Source: an uncultured Planctomycetia bacterium (GTDB lineage: Bacteria > Omnitrophota > Gorgyraeia > Duberdicusellales > 4484-171). Taken from it: DNA of 24,000 bases. The notes beneath the pieces were generated by a model. It made no database searches. It was not told where the DNA came from and saw only the letters and a program-made list of their open reading frames with translations. The translations under genes and the position numbers were made by a program. Each line of letters opens with the position of its first letter. The stretch's first letter is position 1. Of this stretch, positions 1-13,908 are shown one piece after another. The stretch lies in the NCBI GenBank assembly GCA_964536865.1, contig CAZHYN010000013.1:19100-43099 (forward strand). Direction: 5' to 3'.

Positions 1-624
1 ATAATGATTCTTATGAGTAATTTTTTTCTCGGCCCCTGGAGAGACAGTTCTAACTTTTTGTTAAAAATTCTATGGTTTATGATTCTTCTTGGTATAGCTG
101 TAGGGGCATTTTTATCTTTTAAATTATTCATAACTACTCCTGGAGGAAGACGTTGGTGGGATAATGCTAAATTTAGAATGTATATATTTGGGAAAATCTA
201 TAAAAAAATAACTATGCTTAGGTTTGCTTCAATGCTCAATGTGCTTTATCAGGCAGGACTTCCCATTCTTAATATTCTGGATGTTGTAAAAATCACTATT
301 GGGAACGTGGTGTTAGCTAAAGAGTTGGATAATGTAAAAAGGTTTGTAGCTGATGGTAAAGGAATTTCTGGAGGTCTTTTAGGTAGCAAATTATTTCCCC
401 CACTAGTTTCTTATATGGTCTCTGTAGGAGAAAAGGCAGGGGCATTATCTACTATGCTTGATTCTCTATGTGAGTACTATTCCTTAGAAGTAAGAACTTC
501 TCTAAAAAACTTAACCTCTTTGATTGAGCCTATTATGACTTTAGTTTTAGGGGTAGTGATAGGAGGAATGGCTTTAGCGATATTCCTGCCTATGTGGAAT
601 TTGATTTCTATTATCCGAAGATAA
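1..624 (+). CDS. pilC: Type IV pilus / T2SS inner-membrane platform protein, PilC/GspF family, C-terminal part (5' end outside window)
   Basis: Frame 1 is open from base 1 to TAA 622-624. The translation shows a GspF-type repeat (LNVLYQAGLPILNILDVV, SYMVSVGEKAGALSTMLDSLCEYY) and a terminal TM helix (IEPIMTLVLGVVIGGMALAIFLPMWNL). A pilin gene lies 3 kb downstream. Confidence 0.8.
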   Translation: MMILMSNFFLGPWRDSSNFLLKILWFMILLGIAVGAFLSFKLFITTPGGRRWWDNAKFRMYIFGKIYKKITMLRFASMLNVLYQAGLPILNILDVVKITIGNVVLAKELDNVKRFVADGKGISGGLLGSKLFPPLVSYMVSVGEKAGALSTMLDSLCEYYSLEVRTSLKNLTSLIEPIMTLVLGVVIGGMALAIFLPMWNLISIIRR

Positions 625-1434
625 GTGATTTTTGGTTTTTTAATAGGAATAGTTATTCTAATAATTTATATTATTATCTCTTCCTGGTGGTGGAGAAGAA
701 AATTACATTTTTATGTTAAAAAATCTCGAGAAGAGGAAGCTAGACTCATTCATCTAGAGAAAATGGCCTCTTTAGGAACTTTAGCTGCTGGAGTAGCTCA
801 TGAGATTAATAATCCTTTGACCTTTCTTCTTACTAATCTAGGACTCCTTTCTCACTATATAAAAGAGGAGAAGAGAGTCAAAGAAGAGTTACAAAAAGAA
901 ATAAGTGTAATTTTAGATGAGTGTAACGAAGGAGTGAATAGAATAAAGAGGATTGTTCAAGATCTGCTTTCTTTTTCTCACCGCTCACGAGGTAAAAAAG
1001 TTTCTACAAACATCAATGAGTTGCTGGATGTAAGTATAAGAATTCTATGGAATGAGATAAAGTATAAGGTTGATATAGTAAAAAATTATGAAGCAGTAAC
1101 TCCTCTTCGGATAGATCCTAATCAACTAAGTCAAGTATTTTTAAATATAATCATCAACGCTACTCATGCAGTAAAGAATAAAGGGACAATTTTTCTTTCT
1201 ACCCAAGAGAATGAGAAGGAATTTATCATTAAGGTTTCTGATACAGGAGAAGGAATTCCTAAAGAAGTTCTTCCCAAGATTTTTGAACCTTTCTTTACTA
1301 CTAAGGGAGGTACGGGTTTAGGACTCTATGTAAGCAAAAATATTGTGGAGAATATGGGGGGTAGGATAGAAGTAGAAACTCAATTGGGAGAGGGTAGTAC
1401 ATTCACTATTTTTCTGCCTAAAGTTAAAAAATAA
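625..1434 (+). CDS. Sensor histidine kinase (one N-terminal TM helix, HisKA + HATPase_c, no recognisable sensor domain)
   Basis: GTG 625 directly abuts the pilC stop. H-box AAGVAHEINNPL, N-box NIIINATHA, G1 DTGEGI, G2 GGTGLGL. Confidence 0.85.
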   Translation: MIFGFLIGIVILIIYIIISSWWWRRKLHFYVKKSREEEARLIHLEKMASLGTLAAGVAHEINNPLTFLLTNLGLLSHYIKEEKRVKEELQKEISVILDECNEGVNRIKRIVQDLLSFSHRSRGKKVSTNINELLDVSIRILWNEIKYKVDIVKNYEAVTPLRIDPNQLSQVFLNIIINATHAVKNKGTIFLSTQENEKEFIIKVSDTGEGIPKEVLPKIFEPFFTTKGGTGLGLYVSKNIVENMGGRIEVETQLGEGSTFTIFLPKVKK

Positions 1435-1455
1435 TTTCTTTAAGAGAAAAGTGCT

Positions 1456-1809
1456 ATGGGAGTAGAGAAAAGAAAGTATCCTAGGGTTAAGGTTAAGTTT
1501 TCCGTAGAGTATAGGGGGAAGAATGTTTGGCAAAACGCTGAGATTGACAATATCTCCAGAGGGGGGATGTTTATTGTTACGGAGAAGATAGAGCCACCAG
1601 GAACAAATATAGAGCTTATTTTTGAACTAGGAGAAAGTAAGAGGAAGATCCAAGCTCAAGGAGTAGTGGTGTGGACACGTACTCAATCTCAGCACAATCA
1701 TGAAGGTAGGCTTCTCCCTCAGGGTATGGGAGTCCAATTCACCAAAATTTTCCCTGGAGAAGCAGAAAATTTTTTGGCTGATTTAATAGAGAAGTGGAGA
1801 GATGGATAA
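1456..1809 (+). CDS. PilZ domain protein (stand-alone c-di-GMP receptor)
   Basis: Canonical PilZ motifs: RxxxR (RKYPR) and (D/N)xSxxG (DNISRGG) about 22 residues apart, on a roughly 117-aa beta-barrel-sized protein. Confidence 0.8.
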   Translation: MGVEKRKYPRVKVKFSVEYRGKNVWQNAEIDNISRGGMFIVTEKIEPPGTNIELIFELGESKRKIQAQGVVVWTRTQSQHNHEGRLLPQGMGVQFTKIFPGEAENFLADLIEKWRDG

Positions 1810-2374
1810 ACATACTATTCTCGTTGTAGATGATGAGCCTAATATAGTTTCTTCCCTAAAGAGGGTTCTTGCCTCCGAGGATAGAGAGATTTTATCTGCC
1901 TATAGTGCTGAAGAGGCTTGGAGGCTTCTTCAAGAGAAGGGAGAAGTAGAGGTAATTATTTGTGATAATAAATTACCGGGAGCCTCTGGCGTAGAATTCC
2001 TTTCCAAAGTAAAAACTGCTCATCCCCACACAGTAAGAATTCTTATTACTGGTTATCCTGATTTGACCAGTGTTGCAGAGGCAATAGATAAGGCAGGCAT
2101 CTGGCGGTACCTCTTAAAGCCTGTAGAGATAGAGGAGTTAAAAACTTTAGTAAACCAGGCTTTTGGTTACTATAGGATTTTAAAAGAAAATCAAATTCTT
2201 TTTGATATCGTTTGTCAACAAGCGGAGTGGCTTAAGGTATTAAGAGAAAAGTATCCTGAGATTGTGTCCCGGGAAGTAGAAGAAGGGAAGATAATTGATA
2301 TAGAATGGAGAGAAGCTTCTGACACAGTTAGAAAATTCATAGAAAAGTACTACCTTCACAAAAAAGGAGAATGA
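1802..2374 (+). CDS. Response regulator: CheY-like receiver domain plus ~70-aa uncharacterised C-terminal domain (no DNA-binding or GGDEF/EAL motif seen)
   Basis: VVDDEPNI acidic pocket, phospho-acceptor context IICDNKLPGASG, TGY and LLKP signatures. ATG 1802 overlaps the PilZ stop (1807-1809) by 8 nt. Confidence 0.85.
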   Translation: MDKHTILVVDDEPNIVSSLKRVLASEDREILSAYSAEEAWRLLQEKGEVEVIICDNKLPGASGVEFLSKVKTAHPHTVRILITGYPDLTSVAEAIDKAGIWRYLLKPVEIEELKTLVNQAFGYYRILKENQILFDIVCQQAEWLKVLREKYPEIVSREVEEGKIIDIEWREASDTVRKFIEKYYLHKKGE

Positions 2375-3183
2375 AAGAGTTAGAAAAAAGATTGGTAAAA
2401 GAAGGATGGGTTACCTCTGCTCAACTTATAAAAGCTAAGGAAGAGCAGAAGAAAAAAAAGAAGAAATCCTTATTCTCTGTTTTAGTAACTTTGGGATATC
2501 TAAGTGAAGAGGATATTTACCTATTCTTTGCTCAGAGTGCTCAGATACCTTTTGTAAGGCCAGGCGATTATCTTTCAGATGAAGAACTTTTTAATCTTTT
2601 TTCCGAAGACTTCTATCGGGAGCATCTTTTTGTTCCTCTCTTTAGAATAGGAAATACTCTTTACATTGGGACTGCTAATCCCCTGGATACAGAGTTTATG
2701 GATACCTTAAGGAAGCATACTAATTTAGATATCTTTCCTCTATTTGCCTCTCCTTCTTCTATCTTAGAGGCAATAAATCGTGTATTTGGGCCAGAGAAAG
2801 TATACTTACAGTTAGAGGAGTTAGTTAGTTTCTCTCCTTCATTAAGTATACTACCCTTAGGAAGAGAATCTGAAAGGATAGTGATAAATACACCTGTAGA
2901 GTTTAAAGTTATTGACAAGAGGATAACTTTAGCATCTTCTCAATATCTAAAGGGAACTGCTTTGAATATTTCTCAAAGTGGTAAGGGGGTAGGGATAAGG
3001 ACTTTTCTTTTTCTTCCTTCTGGAGCAAAGATTCTTCTAAAGTTTCCTTCATTCGATCCTAATTGTGAATTAGAAGCAGAGATAACCCACTGCAGAATGG
3101 AACAAGGTTATTATTTCTTAGGAGTGAAATTTCTCCAAACAAGAAAAGATTTATTAAGATATTTATTGGAAGAAAAAAAATAA
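2371..3183 (+). CDS. Fusion protein: N-terminal T2SSE_N/MshEN-like domain + C-terminal PilZ domain
   Basis: The N-terminus resembles the GspE/PilB N-terminal domain (LVKEGWVTSAQLIKAKEEQ..., VLVTLGYLSEEDIYLFFAQSAQIPFV). The C-terminus has RxxxR (RESER) and NxSxxG (NISQSG). ATGA start/stop overlap with the response regulator; RBS AAAGGAGA at 2363-2370. Confidence 0.65.
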   Translation: MKELEKRLVKEGWVTSAQLIKAKEEQKKKKKKSLFSVLVTLGYLSEEDIYLFFAQSAQIPFVRPGDYLSDEELFNLFSEDFYREHLFVPLFRIGNTLYIGTANPLDTEFMDTLRKHTNLDIFPLFASPSSILEAINRVFGPEKVYLQLEELVSFSPSLSILPLGRESERIVINTPVEFKVIDKRITLASSQYLKGTALNISQSGKGVGIRTFLFLPSGAKILLKFPSFDPNCELEAEITHCRMEQGYYFLGVKFLQTRKDLLRYLLEEKK

Positions 3184-3296: not shown

Positions 3297-3480
3297 TACT
3301 ACTCGACAAAGGCAAACTCGTGGTAACACGAGGGCGCAAAGCCGTGCGTCCCGCTCTTTCTAAGACCCAGATTAACAGGGGTTTGAAGTTAAAGTGCATA
3401 AGGGATGCAGAGGCAGGTAAACTGCAGGATTTAACTAGAAATATGAAAAGGGCGGGATAGGCAGGTTGCCGAAAGTAGTA
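3297..3480 (+). promoter_or_regulatory. c-di-GMP-I (GEMM-I) riboswitch aptamer with an enlarged P2 arm
   Basis: 3308-3343 AAAGGCAAAC-TCGTG-GTAA-CACGA-GGGCGCAAAGCC matches the GEMM-I 5' core (GGCAAAC, GNRA-capped hairpin, GCGCAAAGCC). 3451-3471 GGCGGGATAGGCAGGTTGCCG matches the 3' core (..GGUAGGUAGC..GGUUACCG). Closing helix is TACTACT 3297-3303 / AGTAGTA 3474-3480. The P2 base TCCCGC(3349-3354)/GCGGGA(3452-3457) encloses about 95 nt. Confidence 0.75.
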
Positions 3481-3588: not shown

Positions 3589-3612
3589 TAATAAAGAAAG
3601 GAGGTGAGTAAG

Positions 3613-3972
3613 ATGCGCAGAGGTTTTACTCTTATTGAATTAATTATGATTATCGTTATCATTGGTATTTTAGCAGCTATTGCTATCCCTAAATTTATTG
3701 ACTTAAGAACTGATGCCCAAAAGGCTTCTTGTTTTGGTAGTGCTGCAGCAATTCAAACTGCTCTTTCTAACTATTATGCCCGCCAGGCTATAAAAGGAAG
3801 CCCTGGTTTTCCTAGCACCTTACATGATACATCCTTTACTAGTGAGTATTTCACTGAAGCTACTCTTCCTGATCATCCCAAAGGATGGGATTGGGATACC
3901 TATTATAGCAGTAATACCGGGGCTCTTCATACTGGTAAAGGGGCAGATAGCGGAGCCTGTACAAACTTTTAA
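3613..3972 (+). CDS. pilA: Type IV pilin (prepilin-type N-terminal cleavage/methylation domain)
   Basis: MRRG|FTLIELIMIIVIIGILAAIAIPKF is the class III signal peptide with G-1, F+1 and E+5. RBS AAAGGAGG ends at 3604, 8 nt before ATG 3613; the ORF-track GTG 3604 sits inside the RBS. 119 aa, with two Cys residues. Confidence 0.85.
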   Translation: MRRGFTLIELIMIIVIIGILAAIAIPKFIDLRTDAQKASCFGSAAAIQTALSNYYARQAIKGSPGFPSTLHDTSFTSEYFTEATLPDHPKGWDWDTYYSSNTGALHTGKGADSGACTNF

Positions 3973-3995
3973 TAGCTGAGTTCCTAAGACTACAT

Positions 3996-4023
3996 AAACC
4001 CCGCTTTTTTAAAAGCGGGGTTT
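3996..4023. terminator. Bidirectional intrinsic terminator between convergent pilin and GT-C/TPR genes
   Basis: AAACCCCGCTTTT / AAAAGCGGGGTTT palindrome followed by TTTATTATTTTT on the + strand. It overlaps the last codons (KPRF*) of the minus-strand gene. Confidence 0.6.
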
Positions 4024-5901
4024 ATTATTTTTATCTCTAAGAATAAGCTTACTTAAGGAGAGGGCAGGCCTAAATTGAGGGTTAAGACTAATTGTTTTTT
4101 CTAGCTCCTTTAAAAAGAGTGGATTCTTCAATTTCATATAAACCAATGCCAGAGCATAATGAGAATAATACCAGTCAGGTTTAATTTCTATAGATTTCTG
4201 GTAAAGCTGTTGGGCTTTGTGTAAATCTCCCTTTTTCTCATAAATTTTTCCCCATAGAAAGTAAGAGTAGAATTCAAAAGGGTTTATTTCTATAGCTTTT
4301 TTTATATATCTTTCTGCCATAGTTAGCTTATTTTCCTCTATATAGATTCGTGCTAACGCTTGGTAAGCTCGTTCACTGTAAGGATTTAATTTTAGAGCTT
4401 TGTTTAAATAATAAAGAGCCTTCTCTTTATCGTTCTTTTTTTCGTAAAGAGTGGCTAAGTTAGTATAGATCTGATATACTCTTGCTTGGTTAGGTTCTAG
4501 TTTTAAAGCTTCACTTAAATATTTTATTGCCTCATCATATTTTCCTTCCATGAAGTAAGTACCTGCTAAATTAACATATATTCCCGCCTTCCAATCTATA
4601 TCTTTGGTAGAGATAGTCAGAGCCTTAAAAAATATTTTCCTTGCCTTTTTTAAATACCCCTTCTCTTTATAACTTACCCCTAAATTTAGCCAGTTTCCTA
4701 TATGTTGGGGCTCTTTTTCTGTGCCTTTTCTCCACACTAAGGTAGGATAGTTAAGTTGACAATTTCTTTCCACAGTGAATATAGATAGAATGAAGATTAC
4801 TCCTAATGCAGGATACAAAAAGTATCTTTTGTTTTTTATATAAAAATTTTTAAAAACCTCCATCAGAATTATGTATATACCTATACTGGGAAGATAAAAG
4901 TGGTGTTCCATAGCAGGTACTTTTAAGGTCGCATAAAACTTCGGAAGAAGCATTAAGAGATACCAAAAAACCCCTAAACTTAAAAGATATATTCTTTTTC
5001 TTAAGAGTAGAAGAGTAAATACAAGAATAATTATTCCCATCAAAGGAAAAAAACCTTGAGGTTGAAGAATAGAATTTAGCTGAGGGTAATAATGCAGGAA
5101 ATTAAGATTATCGGGAAATAAAAATAATCTCAGATAGAAAAAGCTTACCCAACTTTGAATAAGAATATTAGAAAGCGGACTCCTTAATCCTCCAGGAGTA
5201 ATTCCCTTAAAGAAGGCTTTTTTGTAAAGAAAATAGAGGAGAGAAATAGTGATGAGAGAAAATAAAAGAAAAATATTCTTCTTCTCTTTAAAAGTGAATT
5301 TAAGACTCCTATATTGATAAAGAAGGTAGTGGCCTCCTATCAAAAGCGGAAAACATAGCCCTGTTTCCTTAGTTAGCAGAGAAAATACATACAGTAAACA
5401 ACTTAAAGCATATCTTTTCTTTAAATAAAGTAAGAATCCCCCCAAAATAAAAAAAGTTACCATCAAATCCGACCTACTAGATATGTAACTGACCGCTTCG
5501 GTATTTATAGGGTGAACTAAAAACAAAAGGATTATAAGAAAGGCTAAGGTTTTGGGGGTATCTTTTTTTAGAGAAGTTAATAAAAAGTAGAGAAGAGTAG
5601 CATTTAAGAAGTGAAGAAGAACATTTATGATGCGGTACCCCACAGGGTTAAGACCTCCACCCCAATAATTAAAAGCAAAACTAAGCATAAGAAGAGGTCT
5701 ACACATTCCTTTGGGGATGGGGTAGCTGGTAACATATCCTTTAAAAAACAGAGGGAAGTATTTTGGATTTTTTATGAAAGTATTTTCTTCTATCATATAG
5801 TAGTCATCGAAGATAAAGGGAGCATTAAGAGCACTGCTATAGGTAAGAAGAGAGATAACTACTAAAGAAAGTATTACAAGATAATCAATTTTACTTTTCA
5901 C
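4009..5901 (-). CDS. TMTC/PMT-like GT-C fold glycosyltransferase (polytopic N-terminal domain) fused to C-terminal TPR repeats, paralog 2
   Basis: About 390 aa of hydrophobic helices with the first-loop acidic motif FIFDDYYMIEEN (GT-C DD/DE loop, as in TMTC and PMT/ArnT families). These are followed by about 6-7 TPR units (e.g. AIKYLSEALKLEPNQARVY, ALYYLNKALKLNPYSERAY). GTG start 5899-5901 overlaps the upstream paralog's stop by 11 nt. Confidence 0.7.
   Translation of the reverse strand: MKSKIDYLVILSLVVISLLTYSSALNAPFIFDDYYMIEENTFIKNPKYFPLFFKGYVTSYPIPKGMCRPLLMLSFAFNYWGGGLNPVGYRIINVLLHFLNATLLYFLLTSLKKDTPKTLAFLIILLFLVHPINTEAVSYISSRSDLMVTFFILGGFLLYLKKRYALSCLLYVFSLLTKETGLCFPLLIGGHYLLYQYRSLKFTFKEKKNIFLLFSLITISLLYFLYKKAFFKGITPGGLRSPLSNILIQSWVSFFYLRLFLFPDNLNFLHYYPQLNSILQPQGFFPLMGIIILVFTLLLLRKRIYLLSLGVFWYLLMLLPKFYATLKVPAMEHHFYLPSIGIYIILMEVFKNFYIKNKRYFLYPALGVIFILSIFTVERNCQLNYPTLVWRKGTEKEPQHIGNWLNLGVSYKEKGYLKKARKIFFKALTISTKDIDWKAGIYVNLAGTYFMEGKYDEAIKYLSEALKLEPNQARVYQIYTNLATLYEKKNDKEKALYYLNKALKLNPYSERAYQALARIYIEENKLTMAERYIKKAIEINPFEFYSYFLWGKIYEKKGDLHKAQQLYQKSIEIKPDWYYSHYALALVYMKLKNPLFLKELEKTISLNPQFRPALSLSKLILRDKNNKPRF
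5338..5778. repeat. 441-bp block, copy A, identical to 7313-7753 (direct repeat, offset 1975 bp)
   Basis: Base-by-base comparison of the two stretches found no mismatch. Identity breaks sharply at both ends (5337 c vs 7312 a; 5779 a vs 7754 g). Confidence 0.95.
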
Positions 5902-7870
5902 TTTTTCTGAGGTTATCCTCTATTATCTTCAGAAATTCGTTATCTACTCTAAACCCTAAAGATTTAGCAATCAAAGCATACTTTCTTGCCAAATCCCATC
6001 GGGGAGGAATTAAAGAAGCATAAACTACAGCTAAGTCATTATAAGCAGGGGCAAAACTAGGGTCAATGCTAATTACTTTTTTAAATTCGGAGAGTGCTCT
6101 GCCATCTCCTATTCTTGCATAAAGAGTACCTAAATAGTAATGAGAATTCCGATGCTTGGGATTAAAGTATATTGATTTTTTGTACATCTCTATTGCTTTT
6201 TTATAGTTGTTTTTCTCTTGAAAGATTTGTGCTAAACCATAATAGCCTCCATAGTAAGTAGGATTTATCTGAATTGCTTTTTTAAACATTTCTTTTGCTT
6301 TAAAAAGATTTCCTTCCTTAAGGTAAAAGAAGGCTAAGTTACATCCAGCTTCCACAGAGGCAGGGTAGAGCTGTAGTTCTCTAAGCCAGGCTTCCTCAGC
6401 CTTCTTTTTCTTACCCATTTTTGAATAAATGATCCCTAATAAATTATAACTACCCATAGGCGGAATTTTCACTGATTTGGTAGCATCGTTTATTAACTTT
6501 AACGCTTTTTCGTATTTTCTCTGTTTTATGTAGATGTGCGCTAAATTGCCTCTAGCATTAACTATACTCTCTATCCTATCTGCAGTATTTATTGCTTTTA
6601 TAAATTCTTTTTCTGCTTGGAATGTGGCTCCCATCTTTAGATACACCAGTCCTAACTGATTAAGAATGGTTGCTGATTTAGGGTTTCTCTGTGCAGAGAT
6701 TTTCCAGAAAACTAAGGGATTTCTGTATTCATAGCTTCTAATTAGAGTAAAAGATGCCAAGATAGAGATAATTCCTATAACGAAATAGGTAAAGTACTTG
6801 GTATACTTTAGATAGATTCTTCTTAAGATACTTATCAAAACTATATAGATGCCTATACTAGAAAGATAAAAATGGTGCTCCATAGCAGGGAAGCTAAGCC
6901 GGGCATAAAATTTGGGAAGCAAACCTATAAGCAGCCAGCTTAATCCGATACTTATTAAGAAGTTCTTCTTAATAAAGAGGAGAGCTAAGATAATTAAACC
7001 TACTATTCCTAAGGTTGAGAATAATACAGGGAAATGAAAAAGAGAACCAAACTCCGGAAGATAGTGAATGATATTTAAGGAATGAGGGAGAACGAGTAAT
7101 TTAAAGTAAAGAAGAGTTACTACCGACTGAAGAAGAATGTTTTGGTAGTAAGAACGAGGTATCCTTGCAGGAGTGGAGGAAAAGACCTTCGATTTATAGA
7201 TGAGATACAGTAAAGTAATTAAAACTATTCCTATGTAGACAAACTTTCTTTTCCCTATATCTTTTTTAGAAAGAGGATAGTCTTTTATAAAGTAGATAAA
7301 CTCATAGCTTAATATCAAAAGCGGAAAACATAGCCCTGTTTCCTTAGTTAGCAGAGAAAATACATACAGTAAACAACTTAAAGCATATCTTTTCTTTAAA
7401 TAAAGTAAGAATCCCCCCAAAATAAAAAAAGTTACCATCAAATCCGACCTACTAGATATGTAACTGACCGCTTCGGTATTTATAGGGTGAACTAAAAACA
7501 AAAGGATTATAAGAAAGGCTAAGGTTTTGGGGGTATCTTTTTTTAGAGAAGTTAATAAAAAGTAGAGAAGAGTAGCATTTAAGAAGTGAAGAAGAACATT
7601 TATGATGCGGTACCCCACAGGGTTAAGACCTCCACCCCAATAATTAAAAGCAAAACTAAGCATAAGAAGAGGTCTACACATTCCTTTGGGGATGGGGTAG
7701 CTGGTAACATATCCTTTAAAAAACAGAGGGAAGTATTTTGGATTTTTTATGAAGGTGTTATTTACAATCATATGGTTGTCATCAAATAGGAAAGATCCAT
7801 TTAAGGAAGGTAGGTATATAAGAAAAGATAGACTTGCAAAAATAATTATAAAGATTTTCTCTATTTTCAT
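5891..7870 (-). CDS. TMTC/PMT-like GT-C fold glycosyltransferase fused to C-terminal TPR repeats, paralog 1
   Basis: Same architecture as the neighbour (FLFDDNHMIVNN loop, multi-TM core, TPR tail such as AIEMYKKSIYFNPKHRNSHY). 147 aa are identical to the neighbour and the rest is roughly 35-40% identical by eye. Confidence 0.7.
   Translation of the reverse strand: MKIEKIFIIIFASLSFLIYLPSLNGSFLFDDNHMIVNNTFIKNPKYFPLFFKGYVTSYPIPKGMCRPLLMLSFAFNYWGGGLNPVGYRIINVLLHFLNATLLYFLLTSLKKDTPKTLAFLIILLFLVHPINTEAVSYISSRSDLMVTFFILGGFLLYLKKRYALSCLLYVFSLLTKETGLCFPLLILSYEFIYFIKDYPLSKKDIGKRKFVYIGIVLITLLYLIYKSKVFSSTPARIPRSYYQNILLQSVVTLLYFKLLVLPHSLNIIHYLPEFGSLFHFPVLFSTLGIVGLIILALLFIKKNFLISIGLSWLLIGLLPKFYARLSFPAMEHHFYLSSIGIYIVLISILRRIYLKYTKYFTYFVIGIISILASFTLIRSYEYRNPLVFWKISAQRNPKSATILNQLGLVYLKMGATFQAEKEFIKAINTADRIESIVNARGNLAHIYIKQRKYEKALKLINDATKSVKIPPMGSYNLLGIIYSKMGKKKKAEEAWLRELQLYPASVEAGCNLAFFYLKEGNLFKAKEMFKKAIQINPTYYGGYYGLAQIFQEKNNYKKAIEMYKKSIYFNPKHRNSHYYLGTLYARIGDGRALSEFKKVISIDPSFAPAYNDLAVVYASLIPPRWDLARKYALIAKSLGFRVDNEFLKIIEDNLRKSEK
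7313..7753. repeat. 441-bp block, copy B, identical to 5338-5778
   Basis: See copy A. It encodes residues FIKNPKYFPLFFKGY...TKETGLCFPLLI in both paralogs. Confidence 0.95.
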
Positions 7871-7993: not shown

Positions 7994-8854
7994 ATGGGAG
8001 TAACAGTCATTTTGCCTGCTTATAACGAAGCTAAGAATCTGGAAGAGCTCTTACCGAAAGTTTTTCAAGTCTTAAGTGGGAATAATGTAGAGATTATTGT
8101 TGTAGATGATGCTTCCCAAGATAATACTTCCGAAGTAGCTGAAAAATACGGAGCCAAAGTAATAAGAAATCCTTATAATATGGGAAACGGAGCAAGTATA
8201 AAAAGAGGAATAAGAGAGGCAAAAAATGAGATATTAGTTTTAATGGATGCCGATGGTCAGCATCCTCCAGAGGAGATCCCTAAACTACTTAAAGATTTGA
8301 ATAGTTTTGATATGGTGATAGGGGCACGTTTAAATACTCCTCAAGTGTGGTGGCGCTATTTTGCTAATAAAATGTATAACTTTTTAGCTTCCTATGTGAG
8401 TGGGATAAGAATAAAGGATTTAACTTCGGGATTTAGGGGAGTTAAGAAGAGCAGAGTAGTTAAATTTTTATACCTTTTACCAAATACCTTTTCTTATCCT
8501 TCTACTTTAACTTTATCTTTTATAAAAGCTGCCTATCCGATAAAATTTGTCCCTATTAGAGTTTTGCCAAGAAGAGAAGGGAGAAGCAAAATCAATCTCT
8601 TAAGTGATGGATTAAGGTTTTTTATTATTATTGTACGTATTGCTGTCTTTTTTTCTCCCTTAAAAGTATTTTTACCAATAGCTTTGTTTTTCTTTCTCTG
8701 TGGGTTTTTCTATTACCTCTACACGTTTTTGAGTTTCCACCGTTTTACAAACATGAGTGCGGTGCTTCTTACAACCTCGGTGATAATTTTTATGTTAGGC
8801 TTAGTATCAGAACAGATAGCGAATTTGAGGATGGAAAAAATAGATGATAGATAA
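7994..8854 (+). CDS. GT2-family polyprenyl-phosphate glycosyltransferase (Dpm1/GtrB/ArnC-like) with C-terminal TM helices
   Basis: VTVILPAYNEAKNLEELLP, VVDDASQDNT and the DXD motif LMDADGQH, plus two C-terminal hydrophobic helices (FFIIIVRIAVFF..., AVLLTTSVIIFMLGLVSEQI). ATG 7994 is preferred over the TTG 7991 of the ORF track. Confidence 0.85.
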   Translation: MGVTVILPAYNEAKNLEELLPKVFQVLSGNNVEIIVVDDASQDNTSEVAEKYGAKVIRNPYNMGNGASIKRGIREAKNEILVLMDADGQHPPEEIPKLLKDLNSFDMVIGARLNTPQVWWRYFANKMYNFLASYVSGIRIKDLTSGFRGVKKSRVVKFLYLLPNTFSYPSTLTLSFIKAAYPIKFVPIRVLPRREGRSKINLLSDGLRFFIIIVRIAVFFSPLKVFLPIALFFFLCGFFYYLYTFLSFHRFTNMSAVLLTTSVIIFMLGLVSEQIANLRMEKIDDR

Positions 8855-9985: not shown

Positions 9986-10072
9986 GATTTTTCCTTACGA
10001 AAATATTTTTAAAAGTATAGTAAACAGAAACACTCTTTTTATTTGGAGGAGGAGATAATAGAATAAATACCA

Positions 10073-11170
10073 ATGATAAAAGTCTTAGGGATATCTAGAG
10101 AGTTTCCTCCTTATGATAAAGGAGGAGAGGGGAGAGTATTAGAATATCTGGCTAAGTATTCAAAAAAGTTTGAGGTAGATTTAACAGTAGTTACTGGTTA
10201 TCCTTTCCTAAAAAGCTATAAAGAAAGTTATAATGGTATCCAAGTCTACCGTGTTCCTATGATAGGTGATAATTTCTTGACCAAAATTCCGACATTCGCT
10301 TATTTTCTCTGGCAAATTTTAAAAAATATTCAAGATAAATTCGATCTTATCTATAGTATTTCTGTACCAATATTTGGAAAATTAAAAAAACCACTGATAG
10401 CTCATTTCCAAAATACTAGATACGGAGAGTATATAGCCTGCAGGATGATAAAGAAGAAGATTTATGCCTTTTTAAATAAGATATACATTCCTTTTAATAA
10501 GATTCTTCTAAAGAAAGCTGATGGAGTATTTGTTCTTTCCAGAAATATGATTGAAGAAATTAAAGCCATGAAAGATTGTGAAGGAAAAGAAGTTGTTGTA
10601 ATTCCCAATGGAGTTGATACGGAGCTCTTTAAGCCATCTGGGGAGAGAAGATTTACCTCTCAAGAAAAGAAAGTTCTCTACGTAGGTAGGTTAGACGTGA
10701 GAAAAGGTATAAGTACTCTTTTTTATGCTCTTAAGGAGGTAACAAAGAGAGTAAAAGTAAAGTTGTTAATTGCAGGAGAGGGTAGGGAGAAAATTAGGTT
10801 AACCGCTTTAGCTAAAGCTTTATCCCTGCCAGTTGAATTTTTAGGGAAGATAACTTATCATGATTTGCCTCAAATTTATGAGAGGGCAGATTTATTTGTT
10901 TTACCATCCTTATATGAGCCCTTTGGTATGGTGGCTTTAGAGGCAATGGCGTGTGGGACACCTACCGTTGTCTCCACGGCTTGTCCTATTGAGAGGGTAC
11001 CTAAATTTAAAAAAGGAAGTGCGAAGGATCTTGCCGACTTACTTTTAAGTATACTTTCTTCAGAGGAAAAGTTAGTTGAGATTTCTCACCAATGTAGGGA
11101 AATAGCAAAAAGATACGATTGGGAAAACATTATTTCTAAAATTGTCACTTTCTTTAGGAAATTTGTTTAG
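10073..11170 (+). CDS. GT4-family (GT-B, group 1) glycosyltransferase
   Basis: C-terminal EX7E-type region LPSLYEPFGMVALEAMACGTPTVVS and LLIAGEG. The frame is closed upstream by TAA 10064-10066. Confidence 0.85.
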   Translation: MIKVLGISREFPPYDKGGEGRVLEYLAKYSKKFEVDLTVVTGYPFLKSYKESYNGIQVYRVPMIGDNFLTKIPTFAYFLWQILKNIQDKFDLIYSISVPIFGKLKKPLIAHFQNTRYGEYIACRMIKKKIYAFLNKIYIPFNKILLKKADGVFVLSRNMIEEIKAMKDCEGKEVVVIPNGVDTELFKPSGERRFTSQEKKVLYVGRLDVRKGISTLFYALKEVTKRVKVKLLIAGEGREKIRLTALAKALSLPVEFLGKITYHDLPQIYERADLFVLPSLYEPFGMVALEAMACGTPTVVSTACPIERVPKFKKGSAKDLADLLLSILSSEEKLVEISHQCREIAKRYDWENIISKIVTFFRKFV

Positions 11171-13299: not shown

Positions 13300-13304
13300 T
13301 TTTT

Positions 13305-13381
13305 CGGGGCGTAGCTCAGGTGGTTTTAAGAGCACTTGGTTCGGGACCAAGAGGTCAGCAGTTCAAATCTGCTCGCCCCGA
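13305..13381 (+). tRNA. tRNA-Pro (anticodon CGG)
   Basis: Cloverleaf read by hand: acceptor CGGGGCG/CGCCCCG, D-stem GCTC/GAGC with a 12-nt loop, anticodon stem CTTGG/CCAAG with loop TTCGGGA (CGG, G37), T-arm AGCAG-TTCAAAT-CTGCT, discriminator A. CCA is not encoded. Confidence 0.9.
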
Positions 13382-13498
13382 TCTTAATTTAATGAGAGAG
13401 TAGATATAAAAATCAAGAGTTCTCCAAACTCAGCTTTTTGTCTTAAAGAAAACTTGAGTTGACATTTGAGATATGAAAGTGAAATAGATTAACTCTTA

Positions 13499-13546: not shown

Positions 13547-13908
13547 GGGGGTGAAAGGGCCTCGACTCAATAAGCAGGGAAGGAGTTGCATGCCAGCGGG
13601 TAGACCAGCTGTTTAAGAGGTCTACACCAAATAAAGGCAACAAGCTATGCCTCTACTCCTGCTTACGCAGTTTGTTAAGCAGGGCTCTTAATCCTGTTTG
13701 TCTCTGACGGGATTAAGGGTTCGGTAAGAGAGACTAGAGGTAGATTCTTAACCTTGGGGATTTACCTCGAAAAATCAACAAGGTTGCTTTCTAACAGATC
13801 CTGTCTCTCGGAGCTGTTAGAGAAAAGATCAAAAGAGAGACTAAGCATGTAGTAGGCTCCTCTTTTAGCTTATTGAGGACGCGGGTTCGATTCCCGCCAC
13901 CTCCACCA
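13547..13908 (+). ncRNA. ssrA: tmRNA (SsrA), one-piece, CCA encoded
   Basis: 5' GGGGGTG pairs with 3' CACCTCC, including the G3:U wobble. T-arm GGACGCGGGTTCGATTCCCGCC, then ACCA. PK1-like GTAGACC/GGTCTAC lies before the tag frame GCA..TAA (13637-13678). Helix-5-like CCTGCTTA/TAAGCAGG carries the stop codon. Confidence 0.92.

Follow-up and report, generated by a model that had tools for sequence, protein, structure and literature searches.

A perfect 441-nt identity block in two diverged tandem GT-C/TPR paralogs of an Omnitrophota bacterium: a probable gene-conversion tract

The gene pair and its identity block

The DNA analysed here (the window: the whole stretch of 24,000 nucleotides (nt) from contig CAZHYN010000013.1 of assembly GCA_964536865.1, an uncultured bacterium of the Omnitrophota) contains two tandem paralogous genes in the same orientation. 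In the product of the longer gene, an N-terminal multi-helix membrane domain (residues ~1-390) is followed by a C-terminal TPR domain, and the shorter product has the same architecture with a shorter C-terminal tail. Outside one internal block the two genes are widely diverged; within it, they are identical over 441 nt. The block was concluded, with a probability of roughly 0.85, to be a real interlocus (ectopic) gene-conversion tract between two ancient, co-oriented and overlapping tandem GT-C/TPR paralogs. The features concerned are listed below.

5891..7870, minus strand: upstream 'long-type' paralog, 659 amino acids (aa), from the open reading frame (ORF) and its translation; identical to database protein P0001
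4009..5901, minus strand: downstream 'short-type' paralog, 630 aa, GTG start; collection entries P0125/P0129 are this exact protein
7313..7753, minus strand: block copy 1, long paralog residues 40-186
5338..5778, minus strand: block copy 2, short paralog residues 42-188; every base equal to 7313-7753
7754..7783, minus strand: the 30 nt of the long paralog that adjoin the block towards the gene 5' end; 73% identical to their counterpart in the short paralog, 5779-5808

The start of the short gene and the end of the upstream gene share 11 nt, and because of this overlap the two paralogs are probably co-transcribed. The start codon of the short-type gene is GTG in the window and ATG in a relative (contig L023, described below). 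The two proteins were 52% identical overall (311/603). With the block removed this became (311-147)/(603-147), or 36%, in agreement with the figure of about 35-40% that the initial annotation had given for the sequence outside the block.

Self-comparison of the window, in which a repeat finder and BLAST concurred, revealed 441 uninterrupted identical nt (5338-5778 = 7313-7753, offset 1975 nt). The perfect identity and abrupt edges first noticed in this region thus held base by base (441/441). Identity was 100% in every 30-nt bin of the block. On the low-coordinate flank it fell at once to 27-47% per bin, and on the high-coordinate flank the first bin was at 73% and later bins at 43-60%. The BLAST match between the copies stretched to 471 nt at 98.3%. 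When the aligned positions of both genes were shuffled 10,000 times, no identical run longer than 34 nt arose. By the Nei-Gojobori method, no difference of either kind, synonymous or non-synonymous, was counted between the paralogs in the block, over 99.7 synonymous sites; outside it, the proportion of differing synonymous sites (pS) was 0.66-0.76, which is saturated.

Translation of the block gave 147 aa (FIKNPKYF...GLCFPLLI), as had been proposed from the initial reading of the sequence; they begin 9 residues past the aspartate pair D30/D31 (the DD pair). The adjoining 30 nt at 7754-7783 encode the residues that directly follow the DD motif (long paralog, DNHMIVNNT; short paralog, DYYMIEENT) and are either a partly eroded older tract or merely conserved sequence. 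In an AlphaFold model of the long paralog, copy 1 spans the remainder of the first external loop and the subsequent helices (44-50, 67-80, 84-109, 115-127, 129-158 and 162-175), together with the start of helix 177-196. Homologues of the two proteins were all from Candidatus Omnitrophota metagenome-assembled genomes (MAGs) and metagenomes. Across this family the block is the most conserved part, with a mean commonest-residue frequency of 0.60 compared to 0.43-0.46 elsewhere.

An 84-aa antisense ORF lies inside the block (5611-5865, plus strand) and is most likely spurious rather than a gene. A mobile element was rejected as the identity of the block, which is in frame and homologous to the remainder of the family, and an RNA gene was also rejected, the Rfam search having produced no match there.

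The block in related lineages

Separate assemblies were sought through the 90%-identity clusters of both proteins, which hold members from other sources. In what follows, W denotes the window (W1, long; W2, short), and L with a number denotes a fetched contig of a relative. Two contigs of a sister lineage, L023 (JGI Ga0190363_1000085, 50.6 kb) and L024 (ENA ERZ1742239 NODE_10298), were ~90% identical to the window at the nucleotide level over 5.4 kb. Between L023 and L024, 13 of 7857 positions differ, so that these are distinct sequence records. Both exhibited the same overlapping gene pair, and in both the same 441 nt were 100% identical between the copies, with the same edges.

Between W and L023, the block differs at 28 sites, 19 synonymous and 9 non-synonymous, corresponding to a synonymous divergence (dS) of 0.22, which is comparable to the flank dS of 0.22-0.36. 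At all 28 of these sites the two copies within each genome agree. A third lineage, L025, matches W at 3 of the 28, so that the changes there are derived in the L023 lineage, where they are found in both copies. Without conversion since the W/L023 split, ~28 within-genome differences would be expected; none was observed. Dividing the 95% Poisson limit (3 differences) by 28, at the W/L023 divergence rate, places the last homogenisation in the W lineage, as an estimate, no further back than approximately one tenth of the age of that split.

Grouping was assessed from protein identity matrices and an unbootstrapped tree of the block. Inside the block the copies cluster by genome, and outside it they cluster by paralog type. 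The comparison with L001 illustrates this for each region.

Block, residues 40-186: W1-W2 100%; W1-L001_1 ~74%
Rest of the membrane domain, residues 187-390: W1-W2 38%; W1-L001_1 52%, W2-L001_2 54%
TPR domain, residues 391-609: W1-W2 32%; W1-L001_1 49%, W2-L001_2 61%

At the protein level, the within-genome block pairs were 100% identical in L023, 93% in L001 and 90% in L006, and the copy on L003, from the same MAG as L006, had a block 92-95% identical to both L006 copies. Between genomes the block was ~73-75% identical, whatever the paralog type. For the closer pair of W and L023, the corresponding value was 95% between genomes versus 100% within each; their long paralogs (W1-L023_1) were 87% identical in the rest of the membrane domain and 92% in the TPR domain, and their short paralogs (W2-L023_2) 96% in both.

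The tandem long-plus-short arrangement is old and syntenic; in W, L001, L002 and L023, the short copy faces a convergent pilin-like gene. Islands of raised identity between the paralogs of one genome were found in further lineages.

L001: perfect over 423 nt, 8082-8504 = 10051-10473, residues 28-168
L006: 94% over 249 nt, then 88% over 243 nt
L007: 91% over 143 nt
L003: 90% over 197 nt, to the contig end
L002: 86% over 150 nt
L008: 77%

All tracts lie within residues ~26-186. The island of L001 takes in the DD motif and stops 18 residues before the end of the window block. No island was present in the most distant pairs, L015 and L017. The initial annotation had attributed the block to very recent non-reciprocal recombination between the tandem copies. 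This is supported by the blocks of L023 and L024 and by the 28/28 shared differences, and the islands of distant lineages, having other boundaries, extend it from a single recent event to a recurrent one. The pattern is one of segmental concerted evolution via repeated interlocus gene conversion.

Several of these contigs showed further peculiarities. Contigs L003 (1859-4126) and L006 (1-3914), both of MAG JAHJHM01, together seemingly hold three tandem copies (long, intermediate and short) whose blocks have 90-95% mutual protein identity, and the contigs break exactly in the island. In L007 (3964-5918), two overlapping ORFs, 3964-4468 and 4157-5918, together make up the long paralog; the apparent frameshift inside the island region points either to a pseudogene or to an error of sequencing or assembly at the repeat. 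The C-terminal tail of the second copy in L002 (9929-11926) is of the long type (…PPDWKLAKEFAEKAANFGF…); this copy clusters with neither type, and its annotated start (10043) removes the N-terminal helix and the DD motif. The L002 pair may stem from a different duplication.

Three family copies were present on one contig in L032 (3972-9847). Their N-terminal regions are 72-77% mutually identical, and this array is without recent conversion. Downstream of the family gene on two JGI contigs, L034 (2134-3188) and L037 (1874-3241), direct-repeat arrays were found with a period of ~267 nt and 77-89% identity, probably encoding a repeat-domain protein. L009 starts with a perfect 127-nt direct repeat (1-127 = 205-331, within 1-331), which looks like an assembly end artefact. 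The close relative L025 (1-2400; JGI 3300017593, Ga0187538_161954) has the long paralog and lacks the short one. Its homology to the window stops 58 nt into the short gene (window 5843), with a Peptidase_M24 gene next. Either this contig is chimeric or a real rearrangement or loss took place. The break falls outside the block, and hence this is not the deletion that recombination between the repeats would produce.

Fold, motifs and genomic setting

The full-length AlphaFold model of the long paralog had a predicted local distance difference test score (pLDDT) of 95.9, and the N-terminal domain modelled alone scored 87.9. For the C-terminal part, Pfam matches to TPR_1, TPR_2, TPR_8 and TPR_17 were obtained in both proteins at residues ~400-620, with E-values of 1e-20 to 1e-29, and the long-paralog model shows helix pairs from residue 385 to 658. 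The N-terminal 397 residues matched no Pfam family even at E <= 10, and no PDB chain was matched to the membrane domain by profile search. When the N-terminal model was compared to the PDB with Foldseek, the top 22 matches were all GT-C enzymes. These include STT3, PglB, ArnT, Pmt1/2, Pmt4, ALG9 and AftD, plus the GPI-transamidase subunit U, with probabilities of 0.98-1.00, modest query-normalised TM-scores (0.40-0.55) and E-values of ~1e-3. The modelled N-terminal domain is thus supported as having a GT-C fold, and the evidence from the predicted fold supports GT-C in general and not membership of a particular GT-C family.

TMTC-like enzymes, which are GT-C enzymes carrying TPRs, constitute family GT105 in CAZy. 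Neither window protein produced a Pfam match to DUF1736 (PF08409), PMT or PMT_2 (PF13231). In a precomputed list, PF08409 was found in only one distant homologue (P0093), and PF13231 in a few (P0088, P0089, P0091, P0110, P0113, P0114 and P0116). The only NCBIfam match, to the AZOBR_p60025 cell surface glycopolymer formation family, was below threshold (33-35 bits against a cut-off of 150). Of the description 'GT-C/TPR' given by the initial annotation, the fold and the TPR domain are therefore backed by the structural and Pfam matches, and a Pfam GT-C family is missing.

Aspartates D30 and D31 were present in at least 90% of 100 homologues and sit between model helix 2-22 and the short loop helices. 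By analogy with the TMTC proteins (PMC7801869), the pair would be catalytic. Counterparts of the motif set of that paper were mapped onto the long paralog from a by-eye alignment and the conservation of family-invariant residues.

M1, DD: DD at long residues 30-31, outside the block
M2, SHKSYRP: KGMCRP at long residues 62-67, inside the block
M3, RxD: RSD at long residues 141-143, inside the block
M4, KE(T/Q)xxT: KET at long residues 176-178, inside the block
M7, ERxxY: EHHFY at long residues 331-335, outside the block

In the TMTCs, motifs M2 and M3 have been ascribed mainly to sugar binding, and M4, together with M5 and M7, to phosphate and metal binding (Eisenhaber et al. 2021, PMC7801869). 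It had been suggested initially that the block homogenises the catalytic or donor-binding core. The residues aligned with M2-M4 do fall inside it, and the DD pair and EHHFY do not; it is plausible from these alignments that the block homogenises part of the donor-binding core. On the analogy with TMTC, PMT and ArnT, the enzymes would take a sugar from a polyprenyl-phosphate donor and attach it to acceptors in the periplasm or at the surface, chosen by the TPR domain.

The two genes are flanked on one side by a cluster of GT2, GT9, GT4 and methyltransferase genes. The other side holds a cluster resembling a type IV pilus or type II secretion system (T2SS), with PilZ and MshEN proteins, and a pilin-like gene. 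Further features of the window are as follows.

3994..4025, no strand: hairpin of 14 bp, then a T-run, between the convergent short paralog and pilin-like gene
3604-3972, convergent with the short paralog: pilin-like gene
3301-3379, plus strand: cyclic di-GMP (c-di-GMP)-I riboswitch aptamer, Rfam RF01051, 37.1 bits against a gathering score of 35
13304-13383, plus strand: tRNA-Pro (CGG)
13547-13908, plus strand: tmRNA gene, tag peptide ATSYASTPAYAVC

The short paralog's stop codon (4009-4011) falls within the hairpin, which resembles a bidirectional terminator closing the two-gene unit. The riboswitch lies upstream of the pilin-like gene and adjoins the PilZ, MshEN-PilZ, response-regulator and T2SSF genes (4-3183). 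This suggests that a c-di-GMP-controlled pilus locus adjoins the glycosyltransferase pair.

Origin and significance of the block

The initial annotation had cautioned that the block might come from the assembly. One form that this could take is a partial collapse, in which the copies are similar through an older conversion without being identical and the assembler wrote one consensus into both. Such a block would be a collapsed node in assembly graphs, and contigs do end inside it: L014, a Guaymas MAG contig, stops 123 nt inside the block of the short copy, and a 26.7-kb JGI contig encodes the exact short protein and the long protein (P0121) only from residue 145 (protein-level evidence). Contigs L006, L018, L020 and L022 also start or stop in the block region. 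Identity is moreover perfect in every assembly that threads through the block (W, L023, L024 and L001). Contigs are, however, expected to break inside the block because a true repeat has two exits in the assembly graph, and related assemblies keep paralog islands at 94%, 91%, 90% and 86%, which argues that a divergence of a few per cent or more is not routinely erased. Under a collapse, the island (at least ~95% against ~45% in the flanks) and its origin by gene conversion would still hold, and only the claim of zero divergence and very recent conversion would weaken. A collapse of this kind was judged improbable. The other form is a chimeric mis-assembly, with the block truly in one gene only and the diverged sequence of the other replaced by the assembler. 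The source is indeed a MAG, and the exact long and short proteins have no contig in the gene-position index. Yet L023 and L024, at ~10% from the window and 13 sites apart, have the same architecture and the same four junctions, and the JGI contig, which is separate, encodes the exact short protein with the block as well as the long protein from residue 145. A mis-join would also need common k-mers at both diverged edges, where none is present, and both reading frames are intact with all family-invariant residues kept. The concordant separate assemblies and the contig breaks make a chimeric artefact very unlikely, and of the original caveat it is the collapse of a few differences that retains some weight. 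The remaining alternative dispenses with conversion and places both paralogs under extreme purifying selection in the block, whether on codons or on nucleotides. In its favour, no other part of the family is as conserved as the block, which has many invariant residues, but the comparison of orthologous pairs that was proposed at the outset showed that the blocks of relatives diverge ordinarily. The dS of 0.22 between W and L023 (19 synonymous and 9 non-synonymous sites) is like that of the flanks, so constraint on the nucleotide sequence is not the explanation for zero divergence between paralogs. Each W/L023 change recurs in the other copy within that genome, and the protein identity of the block between genomes reaches only ~73-75%. 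Purifying selection alone is refuted by the orthologous dS and the mirrored changes, and its probability is negligible.

Several considerations count against a recent conversion tract of exact identity. Assemblers can pop small bubbles between repeat copies, by which a few true differences may have been erased, and a collapsed repeat would automatically make lineage differences look common to both copies. L023 and L024 represent very similar populations, perhaps assembled with similar software, and a systematic collapse would recur in both. Every lineage bearing the short type may also have been converted itself, which leaves no unconverted reference by which the donor copy could be told. Finally, a selective reading, in which the block is a shared donor module, has motif homology to the TMTC modelling paper as its sole basis. 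The gene-conversion tract is held to be real, but its exact 100% identity cannot be certified without reads.

A mechanism for repeated gene conversion can be proposed from established knowledge of homologous recombination. The two copies would pair within a genome or between sister chromosomes, and a non-crossover event would write one copy onto the other. The strongest protein constraint, in the N-terminal stretch, would keep nucleotide similarity sufficient to start recombination. Tracts could start and end only where the copies are similar enough, and would thereby be confined to this most conserved stretch. As each conversion restores perfect identity, it would create a very efficient substrate for the next, and the island would persist with fixed edges while the flanks stay saturated. 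The same sharp edges in W and L023 may be understood in this way, the divergence of the flanks being too great for a tract to spread into them. A tract overwriting paralog-specific parts is probably eliminated by selection. Conversion may be tolerated or favoured since the stretch carries sugar- and phosphate-binding motifs usable by both enzymes. The remaining membrane helices and the TPR domain would carry the paralog-specific functions, probably acceptor recognition, and be kept apart by selection.

A crossover between the direct repeats would instead delete or triplicate the intervening 1975 bp, making chimeric genes. The initial annotation had pointed to the direct repeat as a substrate for such deletion or duplication. 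This is true in principle, and the predicted products were not found: chimeras predicted for the W and L023 lineages were absent from a collection of ~15 billion proteins, which is a weak negative. Their absence fits, weakly, with both genes being needed. A tentative and rather unlikely extension is that the island is itself kept by selection. The co-transcribed enzymes would then act on one lipid-linked donor, with conversion co-evolving the half that holds M2-M4 while the acceptor half and the TPR domain diversify. On this selective reading the enzymes possibly form a heteromer, by analogy with Pmt1-Pmt2.

The tufA/tufB pair is an example of bacterial paralogs under gene conversion and concerted evolution. 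As in bacterial concerted paralogs generally, the paralogs here are closer within a genome than orthologs are between genomes, the synonymous sites are homogenised and the pattern recurs over lineages. Unlike whole-gene concerted pairs, only an internal segment of 423-441 nt is homogenised, the flanks are saturated and the genes are mosaic; unlike dispersed pairs, they lie in tandem and overlap. Both interlocus gene conversion and concerted evolution are well documented in prokaryotes, for example through the cases catalogued by Wang & Chen (2018, Commun Biol 1:12, PMC6053082). The Omnitrophota family of TPR-carrying GT-C proteins was absent from the literature found on gene conversion in glycosyltransferase paralogs, a set that did not extend to the 26-gene list of PMC6053082. 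For eukaryotic tandem paralogs, segment-restricted conversion has been described in TLR1/TLR6 (PMC2077338) and mosaic divergence in HMA4 (bioRxiv 10.1101/2025.10.29.685298). They resemble the window pair in that conversion limited to part of the gene leads to mosaic divergence of tandem duplicates, and they differ from it in being eukaryotic, the window pair being bacterial and from an uncultivated phylum. With the TMTC1-4/PMT/ArnT clan (PMC7801869), the window proteins have several features in common. As in the TMTCs, a multi-pass N-terminal GT-C domain, assigned here from the model, precedes C-terminal TPRs, and as in the clan there is a DD pair in the first external loop and there are counterparts of M2, M3, M4 and M7. 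They differ from the clan in having no Pfam match to DUF1736, PMT or PMT_2.

The block is a new instance of a known process in a poorly known phylum and enzyme family, its particular feature being the recurrence in one structural segment. From sequence alone, it gives a clean and replicated case of concerted evolution confined to one segment of the genes, in a phylum that is uncultivated. In practical terms, the 423-441-nt repeat recurrently breaks contigs in this GT-C/TPR gene family and could mislead binning, gene calling and phylogenies built from the N-terminal half of the proteins; trees of the family need the region past residue ~190. For GT-C enzymes, the pair amounts to a natural experiment in which residues ~40-186 are interchangeable between enzymes that otherwise differ by ~64%, and this interchangeability predicts that the segment sets the donor and not the acceptor. 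If the selective reading were true, the pair would be a natural design of one donor module and two acceptor modules, kept in several Omnitrophota lineages.

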